In this document: piece by piece, positions 3,860 through 58,480 of the stretch
Layout: each line of letters starts with the position of its first letter
Numbering within the stretch: the stretch's first letter is position 1
From: Octopus vulgaris
Taxonomy: Eukaryota
Direction: 5' to 3'
Length of the DNA: 64,000 nt
Assembly (NCBI GenBank): GCA_951406725.2
Contig: OX597822.1
Coordinates: 82,336,001-82,400,000 of the forward strand
Notes under the pieces: generated by a model
Databases searched by the model: none
Told to the model about the DNA's origin: nothing
What the model saw: the letters and a program-made list of their open reading frames with translations, nothing else
Position numbers and translations under genes: made by a program

Positions 3860-4210
3860 CATTGTGAAGTAAAAGGTCAAACTAACAGGGAAAATCTAGG
3901 ACAGATAATGTTGCTGCAGAATATTCTACTTTGAGCTGTTAAGACCCCTGGTTGAAAATTTGACAGCCACCAGGAGGCCTTCCTGAACTTAATAAGGTTG
4001 ACCTTTTTTTCTTTTCTTTCTTTTTCATTTCAATGTTTTTTTTTATCTTTCATATAACAGAACAACAGAAAGAATTAGGGTAAGGATAGAAGGAAATACT
4101 GTGTGAAGGAACAATAGTTATCCAATACTATTGTAATTATGAAGTAACACAATCCTTCTTCTCTCTTTCTTGCATGTATATACACATAGATACATGTATA
4201 TATATATATG

Positions 4211-4285
<75 letters not shown>

Positions 4286-4342
4286 AGAAGGTTGAAAAGG
4301 AACACATGAAGGTAGAAAATGCTAAAATAATTTTATACATTT

Positions 4343-4378
4343 CAGTACCGGTTTCGGTCATTGAGACTTTTTCAACTG
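4343..4378 (-). ncRNA. Minimal type I hammerhead ribozyme motif, U3:A8 core variant
   Basis: Minus strand: CAG TTGAAAA aGTC tcaat GACc GAAA CCGG TA CTG (stem I CAG/CTG, palindromic helix III, GUA site). Confidence 0.55.
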
Positions 4379-4556
4379 TAAGTATGGAAAAGAATTAAAT
4401 TTTGGAAAAATTAACAGAAAAGTTTCTTAAAAGAATCTTTGCATAGTATTTAAATAAAAGGGGCATTTTCCTTGTTTCTGCCTGTCCCTGTCTCTCTTGT
4501 TTAAGCCATTTAAAAACACAAAAACTGTTAGATACACTTCAAAATTTAAATTTAAT

Positions 4557-4605
4557 TTGCCAAAACATTTTCGTTGCTTTGAGACTGCAACCTGATTACT
4601 GACAA
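4557..4605 (-). ncRNA. Hammerhead-like motif, G3:C8 core variant (G5A here, probably inactive)
   Basis: Minus strand: TTGTCA GTAATCA gGTTGC agtctcaaa GCAAC GAAA ATGT TT TGGCAA. Confidence 0.45.
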
Positions 4606-5033
4606 TATATATATATATATATGTAAATAATGAAGTTCGAAAATGCTGCTATATTATACAATTTTTAATTTTTATATATACATTATAACATGTTTCAGTT
4701 CCTGAAATGAACCTTATCAAAAAAAGTTATATATAAAAAAAGATAGTTCATGCTATCAATCACAAGAAATTCATTTATAATACACAACGGTGTCAGACAT
4801 CATAAAGTTCATATATATAGTTTGAAGTGAGTTCGTTCATGCTATATGTTTAAAGTGCATGATGCAGCGGTTCACGGTGGTGACATGCATCCAATACAAA
4901 AAACAGATCAAAGCGGCGATATGTAGTCAATACAAAAAACTGATGTTCCTGAAAGAGAGAGGAATTCATTTTTACCTTGAGCAACTGTGGTGTTCGCTGG
5001 ATGATTCTGGCGAATCTTGTGAATTGTTCAGGT

Positions 5034-5298
5034 TTTATAACACTGGTCAGTCCAGCGTAACGTGACGTCATCAACGTTTTGACCAATCGTTTCGTTAGGT
5101 GGCTTGGTCAAGCAGAACGGGACGTCATCAACGTTCTGACCAATCGTGACCTATCGCTGTATTATAACTGCCTCTTGTCTGTATCCTGTTTTGACCAATC
5201 GTTTCGTTAGGTGGCTTAGTCAAGCAGAACGGGACGTCATCAAAATTCTGACCAATCACGACTTATAGCTGTATTAGATCTGCCCCTTGTCTGTACCT
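5034..5298 (-). promoter_or_regulatory. CpG-rich promoter-like array: 2 x ~112-bp direct repeat with CRE and CCAAT boxes plus TATA
   Basis: Units 5076-5187 and 5188-~5298; TGACGTCA at 5063-5070, two more GACGTCA, four GACCAATC; TATAAAA on minus near 5033-5039. Confidence 0.5.
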
Positions 5299-5314
5299 GT
5301 TATATATATATATA

Positions 5315-5505
5315 AATTTAGTGAGAATTTACAAAAAACAAAAGATGAAGACAGGTATGTAAACAAGAAACAGTTGTATTAGTTTAATGCTCGGAAAGTG
5401 AGAAAGTCTTTTACGTTTCGAGCCTATACTCTTTGACAGAAAGGAACACAGAAATAAACAGGGTGAGAAAATAGAAAAGTTTTTGTGGCTAGTGAGCTAT
5501 CATAT
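5315..5505 (-). mobile_element. Short TA-embedded element with hammerhead-like motif (5408-5443)
   Basis: Minus strand: CTTT CTGTCAA aGAG tatagg CTC GAAA CG TA AAAG; second copy at 36575-36810. Confidence 0.6.
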
Positions 5506-5687
5506 AAATATATATAGATGTATTTGCTGACACACACACACACACACATATATATTAAGGTAACAAACTAAGTTTGTCAATTGAATCTCTCTATTAAATT
5601 TATTGTATATAAATCCTTAAAATCCTTAAAAATCCTTTAAAATGTTTTAGTCCGAAGGCCGCGGCCATGCTGGGGCACCACCGCTGA

Positions 5688-5718
<31 letters not shown>

Positions 5719-5848
5719 TGATCAAAATAAAAACATGATGCCAAGGATTCAGCGGTACATATGTTTCGGGCCTTTATTAGACAGATTTATAACAATGCAT
5801 AATGTATGTCTGTGGCCTTCTTCATTGAGAGAAGAGATGGACGCTTCA

Positions 5849-5881
<33 letters not shown>

Positions 5882-5885
<4 letters not shown>

Positions 5886-6095
5886 AATGTGACTGCGTGT
5901 GTACCGTTGGTGATTTTTTTTCCTCCGTCTTCCCTTCTCTGGATCTTTCCTTTTCCTATTTTTCTGACGAAGAGCTCTGCTCGAAACATTAAACCCTCCT
6001 TCTTCCCTTCCTTCCTGAGCTGCCAATAATGCTATATTTGTTCCACGTCCTCGCGTTGTTGTGTTTTCTCTTTGTGTTTTCATGTTTGGATTAAC
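5882..6095 (+). mobile_element. Short TA-embedded element with minimal hammerhead (5960-5994)
   Basis: TTT CTGACGA aGAGC tct GCTC GAAA CA TT AAA; (TA)n on both sides; homologues at 9017-9215, 49247-49457 and ~55575-55745. Confidence 0.7.
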
Positions 6096-6567
6096 TATAT
6101 ATATATATTTATATATGAAACATTAGCACAGCTCTCACTGTCTTTCATGAAAATGTAGCTTTGCCAGAATGTCTCAAAGCTTATTTCTTTTGAAGGAATT
6201 TGAAAATGCAAACTAATGACTTCCATTCTCTTCAAAGTCCTGTCCTTATATTTACAAACTGATAAATGATTTCTTCCGGGCAATTACAGGCTTATTTTGT
6301 TATTATTGATCAGTAGATGTTCTGCTATGGCATTCGATAGAGGGTCAGTGGTGTGTAAATGTGACAATGTACTCAAGGAAAATCAGGACATGAATGAGAA
6401 TCAGCTGGCTGGTCTGTTCCAGAGGACTTTTGGGCTGGGGCCCATAAATAATGGCTCCACTATAGCACTACCATGCCAGAAATCCCTGGCCTAGCAATGC
6501 TACAATGTGCGAGTCGGGGAAATTGTTGGCTCAGGATAAACTCTACAGCTGCCACCTTGTGTTAGAC

Positions 6568-8383: not shown

Positions 8384-8956
8384 ATTGTGACTGTATCAAG
8401 TATTTTTTGCAGTCTTTTAAATATATATATATATATTAATGTGAGTGTAGATGGATATATTATCTGGATGGATACTGTGGTAGCTCTCAGTTATGCTCCA
8501 GGTTATGGCTAACCACATCAATTAGTATTTAACATCTATGACTCCTAAGTGTTGTCACTCATGCTGTAAATTCCTCTGCTGGGTAATTCAGGGTTCACTT
8601 CACTGGATGCTAATATTACCTGGAATGTATATTAGCAATAATTATAAGGATAGAGAGTATCCTTTTATTTTACGATATGTCATATAGCTTATTTTTACGG
8701 TTATGATGAGCTACACATTTCCACTGCATGGAGTATGAGTAATTGCATATGCAACCAGGCATAATTTTCTGTGCAGCTTTGTTCAGGATCTTTTAACCAG
8801 CTTGACTCAAAGTGGAAAACCTTGAATGAAGCTGCACCCAGCTATAGAAACCATGCCACCACAGACAATTGGAGTCCGGACAGCCCCTAGCTGGTCAGCT
8901 CCATGTCAAACCATCCAACCCATGCCAGCATGGAAAGTGGACATCAAACGATGATG

Positions 8957-9017: not shown

Positions 9018-9215
9018 GTCAATCCAAACATGAACAAGCAAGAAAAAGCAACAACACAAGGACATGGAATAAGTACAGTGTTATTGGACGTTCAGGAAAG
9101 GAAAGAAAAGAAAGAGGATTTCACATTATGAGCGGAGCTCTTCATCCGAAATATAGAAAAAGTCCAAAGATGGGAAGATGGATAAAGAAAATCACCAACG
9201 ATAAACACACGGTCT
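9017..9215 (-). mobile_element. Degenerate copy of the 5882-6095 hammerhead element
   Basis: Reverse complement retains cggatgaagagctccgctc and the catgtttggatt end. Confidence 0.65.
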
Positions 9216-31794: not shown

Positions 31795-32126
31795 CATTAT
31801 TTATATTACTTACATTATTTACATTTGACGATATTTGTCCTCATCTTTTTTTTGTTGTTAACACGTTTCGGCTGATATACCTTCCAGCCTTCATCAGGTG
31901 TCCTGGGGAAATTTCGAACCTGGGTTCTCATTCCTAAGGTATTTTTCGATGTATTTTTCAATACCTCAGGAATGAAAACCCAGGTTCAAAATTTCCCCAA
32001 GACACCTGATGAAGGCTGGAGGGTATATCAGCCGAAACATTATGTTAACAACAAACAGGATGAGGACAAATATCCCTCAAATGTAAAATAATGTACATAA
32101 TTCCTCATCTCTTAAATATAGAACTG
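31795..32126. mobile_element. Penelope-like inverted pseudo-LTR insertion with a hammerhead in each arm and an 11-bp TSD
   Basis: Arms ~31811-31943 and 31960-32095; catcacatgat duplicated at 31784-31794 and 32127-32137. Confidence 0.8.
32001..32046 (+). ncRNA. Minimal type I hammerhead ribozyme motif (mirror copy on minus at 31858-31902)
   Basis: GACAC CTGATGA aGGCTG gagggtatat CAGCC GAAA CA TT ATGTT; the mirror keeps GAAACG. Confidence 0.7.
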
Positions 32127-36574: not shown

Positions 36575-36807
36575 GGGAGAGTTTACGAAAAAAACAAAAG
36601 ATGAAGACAGGTGGTGTACAAAACAAACAGATGTATTAGTATAATGCTCAGGAATAGAAAAAGTCTTTTACATTTCGAGCCTACGCTCTTCTACAGAAAG
36701 GGACACAGAAAAAACAAGGAGAGAAAAAAATGTGTCTAGTGGCTAACGATCTATCATGGCGACTGCCAGCCAGAAGAGTCACACACGAGAGGTAAGAAGA
36801 CTGGGAG

Positions 36808-38188: not shown

Positions 38189-39487
38189 CGAGGCGTGTCC
38201 ATTAAAGATTTTCCCCTAACCCACTTCTGGTTATTGCAGGAAACTGAACTTTTACCAGCATAATCATACATGTCTCTACATGTCACATTGTAAGTTACAG
38301 CTTTCCACTAGTATTCGTTTGTCTTTTACAGCTACTGAAGTGGACTAAGGTGTTATAGTGGAGGCAGTTGAATGTAAATCAGTGATCAGGTTCTTATACT
38401 TGAAAGGGTGTACATCAAAAGAGACTTTTGATGTGATGAAAGAAGTTTATGGTGACGATGCATCATCATACAACATAGTCAAACATTGGCATCACCAGTT
38501 CAAATGTGGTCGGACACTGGTGGAAATGGCTCCTATTCCTGGACAAAACATTCCGTCCTTGATGACGACACAATCCAAAAAGTGGAAGCTGCCATTTCAG
38601 AGGATCGCCGCATAACTATTTGGTAACTAGCCCAAGAAGTAAAGATAAATGTAGGGTCCATGGAAAAATCATTCACGACCATTTGCACATCTGGAAGTTG
38701 TCCATACAATGGATTCCCCAGATTCTTGCACTTTTTCAGAAGCAGGAACGAATCAGATGCTCCCAGTCTATTTTGGCAATGTGCCAAGAAAACAAGGAGG
38801 ACTTTTTTAGCAGACTTATCTCACAGGATGAAACATGGGTCCATCACTTTGATTCTGAGACTAAAGTCCAGTCAAAGCAATGGAAGCATGATAATTCACC
38901 ACTTTGAAAGAAGGCTTGTGTCCAATCCTCAGCAGGCATGGTGATGCTCACAGTCTTTTGGGACCAGCATGGAGCAGTGATGATGGATTTTCTGGCAAAG
39001 GGCCCCACAGTTAATGGGGCATATTATACTTCTCTGCTGCAGAAATTGCGAGACACTATCAAAGCGGATAGTCGTGGCATGCTGACCAAAGGAGTTATCC
39101 TCCTCCTAAACAATGCCCCGGTTCACAATGCACATATTGTCCAGATGAAAGCACACTCCTGTGGCCATGAAATCTTTCCTCTCAATAAAATCCCTTACTC
39201 TTGTGACCTCTTACCGTTTGACTTCCACCTCTTTCCAACCATAAAGTCTTTTTTGAAGAGGAAGCACTTTATAGCTGATGATGAACTTATTTCTGAGGTA
39301 AAATCTTGGCTCCAGACACAATTTATTGACTTCCACAGACGAGGTTTTCACAGCTGCATAAAGCGATGGGAGAGGTGTGTCACCATTGGTGGTGGCCATG
39401 GATAGAAGGACTAATAACTATGCCAAGTTTCATTTATCCCAATCTTTGGGGAGTGGTTCCAGGGAAATCTTTAATGAACGTCCCTCG
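38189..39487 (+). mobile_element. Full-length defective mariner transposon (~1.3 kb)
   Basis: TIRs cgaggcgtgtccattaaagatt / aatctttaatgaacgtccctcg; left TA; inserted into a family C minisatellite unit (gctttata|...|atacatggcac). Confidence 0.92.
38358..39405 (+). pseudogene. Mariner DD34D transposase, frameshifted and with stops
   Basis: ORF pieces 38358-38615, 38620-38907 and 38938-39405 give WIPQIL, QDETWVHHFDSETK, VMLTVFWD, NNAPVH, PYSCDLLPFDFHLF and RWERCV. Confidence 0.9.
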
Positions 39488-49232: not shown

Positions 49233-49453
49233 TTCATCATCATCATTTCAAAATGTGACCGCGTGTGTACCGTTGGCGATTTTTTTTCCTCTGTCTTCCC
49301 TTCTCTGGATCTTTCCTTGTCCTATGTTTCCGACGAAGAGCTCCGCTCGAAACGTCAAACCCTCCTTCTTTCCTTCTTTCCTGAGCATCCAATAATACTA
49401 TATTTGTTCCACATCCTGCGTTGTTGTGTTTTTTTGTGCTTTCATGTTTTGAT

Positions 49454-49497
<44 letters not shown>

Positions 49498-51608: not shown

Positions 51609-52199
51609 TAAATAAATAGATAGATGTCTTCTACTATAGCTCTAGGCTGACTAACCCTTGTGAGTGGATTTTGTAGACAGAAACTGAAAGAAGCCCATCA
51701 TATATATATATATGTGTGTATGTATTATGTATGTATGTATGTATGTATGTATATCGGTGCTGTGTCTGGGGAGAGTCATTCCCTTTTTGTGCCTTATTAT
51801 TTAACACACTCACCGGTAAAATTTCCACTCATTTACTTATTTATTTTTCTAAAATTTTCATTGTATCTTGAAGCCTCTTCAATAGTTGTTGACTCTATCT
51901 GTTATCCGAGCTGTGTTCTTTTTGTTTGTTTGTATGCATGTGTGTGGGTCAGTGTGTGTGTGTGTGTGTGTGTGTGCATACACATGTATGTATGTATGCA
52001 TGTATGTATGTATGTGAGTGTGTTAGATTATGAGTCACTAAATGAAAATGACTCTCCCCAGACACAACAGATTATGCTTCAACACACAAACTCACATAAA
52101 GAATCTTGCAAACCAAATCCCAAAACGAAATATGTATGTGTGTGTGTGTGTTTATATATACATATGTATTTATATATGTGTGTGTGTGTGCCACTCCCA

Positions 52200-58348: not shown

Positions 58349-58391
58349 CCACTACAATTGTTTCTTGTCTTGATCGACAATCTTCAGGTGG
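58349..58391 (-). ncRNA. Identical hammerhead motif on the minus strand (left arm of the palindrome)
   Basis: Exact reverse complement of 58438-58480. Confidence 0.85.
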
Positions 58392-58437: not shown

Positions 58438-58480
58438 CCACCTGAAGATTGTCGATCAAGACAAGAAACAATTGTAGTGG
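58438..58480 (+). ncRNA. Intact minimal type I hammerhead ribozyme motif
   Basis: CCAC CTGAAGA TTGTC gatcaa GACAA GAAA CAATTG TA GTGG; predicted cleavage after GUA at 58476. Confidence 0.85.

Follow-up and report, generated by a model that had tools for sequence, protein, structure and literature searches.

Minimal hammerhead ribozymes of Penelope-like elements (PLEs) were described in their thousands by Cervera and de la Peña (2014; PMC4209133), with an extra nucleotide, palindromes, U3-A8 cores and low dimer activity; the same paper reports single truncated copies, pairs on opposite strands and many families per genome. Insertion into (TA)n is reported for the Hydra and Naiad clades by Craig et al. 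(2021; PMC8557442), who put forward a linker hypothesis for Neptune and include a CX2-5CxxC linker and a CCHH-type endonuclease (EN) in its feature list. In the anole Poseidon element PAc (Frangieh et al., 2024; PMC11167929) reverse transcriptase (RT) starts at two RNA-internal sites bounding an optional tail, and the hammerhead cleaves only with protein, C3G/G8C giving partial rescue. Non-LTR retrozymes (LTR, long terminal repeat) are 150–450 nt units with a type I hammerhead and a proposed origin in PLE pseudo-LTRs (PMC7229834; bioRxiv 10.64898/2026.07.22.740005). Recently active Penelope families are known from an octopus (PMC13282606), in a report that gives no text match for hammerhead, and our literature search found one paper joining PLE, hammerhead and octopus. 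Here we analyse a 64,000-nucleotide window of the Octopus vulgaris genome (assembly GCA_951406725.2, contig OX597822.1, positions 82,336,001 to 82,400,000), in which positions 4286–6095 hold six hammerhead-like motifs, each in a different repeat family (F1 to F6 in order). We conclude with good confidence that the 3' end repeats of six families are piled up in this stretch, five of the families shown to be protein-coding PLE retrotransposons and the sixth likely to be so, that these repeats probably entered a single TA-rich tract in succession, and that the motifs are predicted to be weak ribozymes assisted by dimer formation or by protein.

A sequence-only reading had placed six hammerhead-like motifs in this microsatellite-dense window, and all six are present where it put them; it assigned no strands, and motifs 1–5 prove to lie on the minus strand and motif 6 on the plus strand. 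Searches of the genome (2.8 Gb, 227 contigs) show that all six segments are members of repeat families, with first-look candidates numbering at least 3460 for the F1 query (which also contained F2), 2006 for F2, 1206 for F3, 3011 for F4, 924 for F5 and 2703 for F6. Family majorities were built from the 25–30 best matches to each window copy, and they carry the complete motif, except for a weak stem I in F3. Identity of the window copy to its majority is 93.5% for F1, 91.7% for F2, 99.7% for F3, 90.8% for F4, 100% for F5 and 96.3% for F6; since divergence thus spans 0–9%, the copies were likely inserted at different times. The segments had been read as unrelated, which holds in that six distinct families are present and fails in that F4 and F6 are related. 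They had also been read as mostly parted by (TA)n, and such tracts are indeed found, except that F1 joins F2 directly, without intervening TA.

Colinearity with RT/GIY-YIG coding sequence was found for F3 by Pfam, for F1, F4 and F6 by tblastn together with motifs, and for F5 by motifs. The Neptune-type families have a CCHH-type EN with CxxC, the CX4CxxC linker occurs in F1, F3, F4 and F6, and DKG in F3 and F4. With the RT followed by a C-terminal GIY-YIG domain and with insertion at microsatellites, these features resemble the Neptune (or Nematis) clade; unlike that clade, F3 encodes a long N-terminal region ahead of the RT and F6 has a CA-rich 3' untranslated region (UTR) of about 1.6 kb. The proposed link to Penelope-like pseudo-LTRs is thereby borne out, with coding parents for five families and copies with two pseudo-LTRs for F3 and F4. 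The idea of non-autonomous mini-elements is not, five of the six pieces being 5'-truncated 3' ends (pseudo-LTRs) of coding PLEs, and F2 alone remains a candidate.

The clearest case is F3 (4622–5302, minus strand), a 680-bp 5'-truncated copy from a young Neptune-type PLE, covering 3' UTR and pseudo-LTR and 98.4% identical over 700 bp to locus L181; the short third segment of the sequence-only reading belongs to this copy, which reaches 5302. L181 contains a 650-aa frame matching Pfam RVT_1 (E 1.7e-6, just under the cut-off) and GIY-YIG (E 1.9e-5, above the cut-off), and the full-length copy L307 has coding sequence between pseudo-LTRs at 1557–1839 and 6183–6465. Motif 3 (4681–4726, minus), with the U3-A8 core UUGAUAA, palindrome CAUG and U17, is identical to the F3 majority, and the earlier placement at 4687–4720 spans U17 to U3 only. 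U3 and A8 are found in 25/25 copies. A (TA)n tract (4606–4621) lies at the 3' end of F3. The F3 3' UTR also holds a 112-bp tandem repeat (window 5076–5301; L181 7500–7800), about 450 bp upstream of the pseudo-LTR end, with CCAAT- and TGACGTCA-like words that we take to resemble promoter elements.

F1 (4286–4503, minus) is the 3' end of a Neptune-type PLE, comprising the pseudo-LTR and most of an optional tail (4286–4308). Longer copies (L040/L189, L050, L052) continue into RT-EN sequence that is 46–64% identical to the F3 protein. Motif 1 (4343–4378, minus) has the U3-A8 core UUGAAAA as in the rest of the family, palindrome CCGG and A17, and pair 10.1-11.1 is A.C in this copy versus A-U in the majority; among 28 matched copies U3 is found in 27 and A8 in 28. 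F4 (5321–5503, minus) is the 3' end of an older Neptune-type PLE, with a (TA)n tract in its 3' flank (5301–5313); F3 sits between this tract and that at 4606–4621. A search with the F4 EN gave 13,744 candidates, and an F4-like end was present in 23 of the 30 best loci. The full-length copy L292 has two pseudo-LTRs, as do the F4 relatives L291, L294 and L300, and no two-pseudo-LTR partial tandem was seen for F1, F2, F5 or F6. Motif 4 (5408–5443, minus) lies in a family with the core CUGUCGA (C3-G8, U at position 6), an extra A and palindrome CG; the window copy carries G8A, which breaks the 3-8 pair. About 4 kb from one F4 element, L196 contains a 577-aa C2H2 zinc-finger frame with a polyglutamine tract (842–2573), and another PLE end, an F4 relative, lies elsewhere in the window (36577–36774, minus).

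F6 (5881–6095, plus) comprises the last 215 nt of a Neptune-type PLE that has F4 as a relative, followed at its 3' end by a (TA)-rich tract (6096–6117). Motif 6 (5960–5994, plus) has the canonical core CUGACGA, an extra A and U17, and in the window copy the palindrome CG has become CA, leaving two of four pairs in a dimer helix III. Most genomic copies have the 215-nt form, and none of 26 unselected copies visibly passes the 5' boundary when judged by eye. The DNA upstream of F6 at locus L011 is itself repeated (1298 candidates) and leads through the CA-rich UTR to EN in 4/4 extended loci. In the long forms L347–L350 the EN lies 0.8–1.7 kb upstream, with the RT thumb present in L347 and L348. 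F6 as a pure mini-element was rejected, as the upstream repeat of L011 had led to EN-bearing copies; open reading frames (ORFs) near F6 at L008 and L028 were rejected as separate neighbours. An old F6-like copy (9018–9214, minus) and an F6 copy with U4C (49247–49456, plus) are present elsewhere in the window.

F5 (5714–5824, minus) is the 3' end of a Hydra-type PLE that is very young: across 111 bp the piece shares 100% identity with many copies. It is joined to an inverted upstream piece of the same pseudo-LTR (5825–5854, plus), a 5' inversion with the same junction type as in L137–L142, and this inversion has cost motif 5 (5752–5825, minus) both C3 and the 5' arm of stem I. (TA)n tracts lie at the F5 3' end (5689–5715) and between F5 and F6 (5853–5881). 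The family core is CUGAAGA (C3-G8), with a stem II of about 50 nt and a 6-nt palindrome. The coding locus L186, where the ORF piece starts at 4061 and the pseudo-LTR ends near 8650, has DKT, a CxCX5C linker and no CxxC in the EN; a Pfam scan gave no match in this piece, and the RT-EN call comes from motifs only. These features, with the hammerhead and (TA)n insertion, match the Hydra clade as given in PMC8557442, and a first assignment of F5 to Nematis was rejected. F5 is longer than the usual <3 kb, a length which that paper gives as a tendency; it exceeds 4.5 kb in L186, and about 2 kb is microsatellite-rich 3' UTR. Further Hydra-type ORFs with the CxCX5C linker were seen at L019, L059 and L332, and several motif clusters with a long stem II and a 6-nt palindrome may belong to Hydra-type families. 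In assembled contigs of eight runs (seven guessed to be RNA, one unlabelled) containing the F5 pseudo-LTR, X3 and X5 show depth steps close to the predicted cut site, inconsistently across runs, and contigs cannot show ends.

A TA tract of at least 8 nt lies within 30 nt of the recognised 3' end in 27/29 copies of F6, 22/23 of F3, 16/22 of F4, 17/24 of F5 and 16/23 of F1, compared with 6% in a random control; unrecognised ends (F6 1, F3 2, F4 3, F5 1, F1 7, and 12 of 25 for F2) were left out. Hence the proposed TA targeting stands for F1, F3, F4, F5 and F6 (70–96% of ends), and F2 shows little TA at its ends. Optional 3' tails are found at 7/23 recognised ends of F1, 5/23 of F3, 12/24 of F5 and 6/13 of F2, and also at the F4 pseudo-LTR/body junction; none was seen in F6. 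Such tails resemble that of PAc, where they mark two RT starts, and an open frame of F2 likewise runs through the tail (PMC11167929). Inversions at the 5' end of truncated copies were also seen. By analogy with PLE biochemistry, the PLE endonuclease would nick (TA)n and the RT would start at an internal RNA site, where either the pseudo-LTR or the tail ends, usually halting early or at the RNA 5' end to leave a piece of 100–700 bp. Because the motif lies within about 35–140 nt of the 3' end, short pieces always keep the hammerhead; and because each insertion leaves flanking TA, the target persists and clusters grow. The view that the elements pile into the same microsatellite stretch agrees with finding all six families within 1.8 kb. 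Among short copies of F4, F6 and F5 (L112–L134, L010–L012, L153) many start at or near ATTC when judged by eye, a possible transcription start common to these families.

An (AT)n tract of 6–10 nt occurs at the body/tail junction in 12/16 pattern matches of F1 (three of the others look like chance), 9/10 of F3 and 6/6 of the F4 clan, in counts for which some loci were fetched twice. In full-length copies this junction belongs to the transcript. Unlike PAc, where the RNA start site is not homologous to the target (PMC11167929), F1, F3 and F4 have (AT)n at the predicted first RT start, where it would be able to pair with the nicked (TA)n primer. The tract may instead be a relic of the target in which the master tandem formed. 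Our literature search found no (AT)n tract at an RT start in print, and no work on microhomology priming beyond PMC8557442, in which the word 'microhomology' was not matched. The tract bears on the source of microsatellite targeting, which could be the linker zinc finger, pairing of RNA with primer, or both.

The six family cores are UUGAAAA (F1), GUGAACA (F2), UUGAUAA (F3), CUGUCGA (F4), CUGAAGA (F5) and CUGACGA (F6), so that the 3-8 pair is C3-G8 in F4, F5 and F6, U3-A8 in F1 and F3, and G3-C8 in F2. With positions 3 and 8 left free, a type I hammerhead descriptor (stem I, core, stem II, GAAA, palindrome, UH) gives 21 matches in 664 kb (60 unselected stretches plus the window), 10 of them C-G, 7 U-A and 4 other; 17/21 are Watson-Crick, compared with 1.4 of 4.5 matches in each of ten shuffles, although the matches are not independent, several coming from one family. 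The NUGANNA-type core noted in the sequence-only reading is loose largely through true 3-8 covariation between families, the remainder being decay in single copies. Over 1.83 Mb the hits form 26 motif clusters with varied stems and palindromes, 13 of them singletons (some likely chance), found with a descriptor that itself requires a palindrome. A rough extrapolation from 17 matches in 664 kb gives about 70,000 descriptor-passing motifs per genome.

A Watson-Crick 3-8 pair, GAAA and UH are common to all six majorities, with U6 in F4. Stems are fully paired in F1, F2, F4, F5 and F6, and an extra nucleotide lies between 9 and 10.1 in F2, F4, F5 and F6. Helix III is fully self-complementary over 4–8 nt in every majority, which fits cleavage as dimers, and the description as minimal type I hammerheads with a palindromic helix III is upheld. 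The short helix I, extra nucleotide, palindromic helix III and U3-A8 pairs resemble the PLE pseudo-LTR hammerheads of PMC4209133, as do the mostly single truncated copies, the head-to-head pairs on opposite strands and the many families; the G3-C8 core of F2, the U6 of F4 and the ~50-nt stem II with 6-nt palindrome of F5 differ from that system as its main text describes it. Natural U3-A8 and A6C have been reported (PMC3088659), and a G3-C8 variant is mentioned in a test of G17-modified ribozymes (PMC3884650). No natural G3-C8 PLE family was found in the literature searched, and 2017 work on PLE hammerhead dimers and the supplements of PMC4209133 and PMC8557442 may list G3-C8 or U6. Among the six copies of the stretch the core is intact only in motifs 1, 3 and 6, and damaging changes affect four of the six copies (motifs 2, 4, 5 and 6). 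The window copies are most likely inert relics.

Several observations pull against this account. The majorities, built from best matches to the window copy, may reflect a subfamily. Clade labels come from motifs, and Nematis shares the CX4CxxC linker. F2 has the weakest link to TA (3/13 recognised 3' ends), no long or coding form of it was found in 25 + 17 loci inspected, and the (AT)n tract is absent from the body/tail junction of F5 as well as F2. The poor stem I of F3 (4/6 pairs, with two U.U mismatches), a young family that seems to have been active recently, and the U6 of F4 imply that selection on cleavage may be weak, and hammerhead mutants of the anole element do not block insertion in vitro (PMC11167929). 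The six families in 1.8 kb exceed all controls, with at most two families found in 55 stretches, and TA targeting accounts for the cluster only as a rare tail.

The most serious alternative concerns the motifs rather than the elements: the folds could be kept as protein-binding or folding elements of PLE RNA, or be carried as passengers, with no cleavage in vivo. The weaknesses of F3 and F4 just described, together with U3 and A17 in F1, are in keeping with this, as are the low activity in vitro reported in PMC4209133 and, for the anole element, the lack of reads ending at the site and a cleavage that is not needed in vitro (PMC11167929). On the other hand, the compensatory C3-G8, U3-A8 and G3-C8 states agree with the tertiary pair that the active fold requires, palindromes vary in sequence and length over the 26 motif clusters (with 13 singletons and a descriptor that demands a palindrome), and in the anole PLE the hammerhead cleaves when protein is present (PMC11167929). 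We regard non-cleaving folds as possible but clearly less probable than weak, assisted ribozymes. The genome offers a test set, with dozens of families, three 3-8 states, the very young F3 and F5, and the full-length copies L307 and L292.

A second alternative is that the pieces are non-autonomous elements resembling short interspersed nuclear elements (SINEs) or retrozymes, replicating as short, perhaps circular, RNAs with PLE proteins in trans. F2 comes closest to this. The window copy (4502–4608, minus) is a piece of an element of about 200 nt with a fixed 5' end, its 3' part missing here. Motif 2 (4557–4605, minus) has in the family the G3-C8 core GUGAACA, an extra G before stem II, palindrome AUAU and U17, with G3 and C8 in 22/22 matched copies; the window copy carries G5A and, judged from its sequence, is likely to be dead. 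F2 has fixed ends, a tail of about 60 nt, frequent head-to-head pairs and a 31-codon open frame which starts inside the repeat and runs through the tail, and a further genome search gave 15,101 first-look candidates. The hunt for a long form covered 16 loci, 12 chosen for the longest open frames among 150 scored and four others with frames >90 aa, plus one array. The open frames near F2 that were translated proved to be microsatellite read-through, and one PLE ORF (L363) belongs to a neighbour; none was retained as a coding parent. F2 itself may be a non-autonomous element. The F6 family adds its predominant 215-nt form and 11 head-to-tail junctions found genome-wide by exact pattern search, against about 13 F6 copies per 550 kb, including a trimer of 219-bp period with identical junctions (L312/L313; G000:C2:134627267–134627515), the closest to a retrozyme-like array that was seen. 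However, long coding forms exist for F1, F3, F4, F5 and F6, the letters at the F6 junctions vary from locus to locus, as those of a fixed circle would not, and fixed 5' ends would also be expected from an RT that initiates within the first pseudo-LTR of a complete transcript and copies as far as the RNA 5' end, as PMC11167929 leads one to expect. The motifs follow the minimal PLE design rather than the canonical one of retrozymes (PMC7229834), and, unlike retrozymes with their tandem arrays, canonical hammerheads and circular RNAs, the families here are dispersed and mostly tied to coding elements. Mini-elements are thus an improbable explanation of the stretch as a whole, and the suggested retrozyme link is not supported: apart from the F6 junctions, copies are mostly single or head-to-head, arrays having been looked for in F6 and F2.

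Three further observations concern F2. It meets F1 directly at 4498–4508, with a few letters shared at the junction, which may derive from a template switch, a target deletion or a later deletion. L357 (G000:C27:32596600–32599700) is a tandem array of eight 426-bp units, every one of which combines an F2 copy, its stem I broken, with flanking repeat DNA; it looks like later satellite amplification. A three-locus family has an F2-like stem II and a U3-A8 core (kinship judged by eye), and a decayed copy of this family lies at 51805–51886 in the window. Minimal PLE hammerheads, U3-A8 and TA targeting are already published, and what interest remains attaches to the G3-C8 core of F2 and to the (AT)n tract where the RT starts. 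Taking these together, we tentatively suggest, as a possibility with the odds against it, both that F2 is a truly non-autonomous PLE-mobilised element of about 200 nt, with many thousands of copies, a natural G3-C8 hammerhead core of a kind that we have otherwise met only as a laboratory rescue mutant, and a related U3-A8 family in the genome, and that Neptune-type families target (TA)n through pairing of an RNA (AT)n tract with the nicked primer at an internal RT start, a homology-assisted form of PLE priming.

A third alternative treats the site as a special landing pad, selected or defined by chromatin, rather than as the tail of a clustering distribution. In its favour, no control stretch holds more than two families in 1.8 kb, and the insertions range from about 9% to 0% divergence. 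Unselected DNA totalling 550 kb holds 24 copies of the six families; when it was probed with every motif cluster, 53 copies were found, again with at most two families per 1.81 kb. Copies of other families near an anchor numbered 34 versus 16.7 expected, an enrichment of about 2x, and three families together were seen at 0/154 anchored loci. A Poisson estimate gives 0.3, 9 and 57 six-member clusters per genome at 1x, 2x and 3x local enrichment. The window was picked from a 2.8-Gb genome in which about nine such clusters are expected at the measured enrichment, the 50 kb of flanking DNA contain one copy of the six families, and four of the six motifs are damaged, all of which make a landing pad very unlikely. 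The hotspot is real and rare, yet compatible with retargeting combined with the selection of this window. The cluster itself, where truncated insertions have come to rest, carries little biological weight.

The type I descriptor recovers three of the six motifs in the stretch (1, 2 and 4), missing 3 and 5 because stem I fails and 6 because the palindrome fails. Compared with dinucleotide shuffles, and on a region chosen for holding motifs, allowing up to three core mismatches gives three matches, a count reached by 0/500 shuffles (mean 0.22); up to two mismatches gives two matches (shuffle mean 0.054; 1/500 get there), and up to four gives three (9/500). Membership of families with complete majority motifs is stronger proof than this test. 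The idea that a loose motif matched by chance in AT-rich, low-complexity sequence, to which the partial recovery and the 9/500 shuffles lend a little colour, is refuted by the family alignments, in which each motif belongs to a repeat family that lies in PLE pseudo-LTRs and has a majority sequence with the fold restored, and it deserves almost no credence.

The expectation that standard annotation would dismiss the stretch as low complexity does not fit a published octopus repeat annotation, which lists Penelope-like families (PMC13282606) that may include these six. No hammerhead family is among the 150 Rfam matches listed of 268; those listed are microsatellite-driven microRNA-type matches plus a few weak others. 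Positions 5606–5688 hold an unclassified fragment of another dispersed repeat, outside the six families. No host gene was recognised on inspection of the window ORF list. A 165-aa frame at 38908–39405 (plus) resembles a mariner-type transposase fragment. An inverted pair at 31819–31907 and 31996–32086 belongs to a further hammerhead-bearing family with a CUGAUGA core, and forms a hairpin scored by Rfam as MIR9486. Finally, a head-to-head pair of another family (58349–58391, minus; 58438–58480, plus) carries a perfect canonical motif with core CUGAAGA and palindrome CAAUUG; the same pair occurs in L242, and these are the most intact hammerheads in the window.

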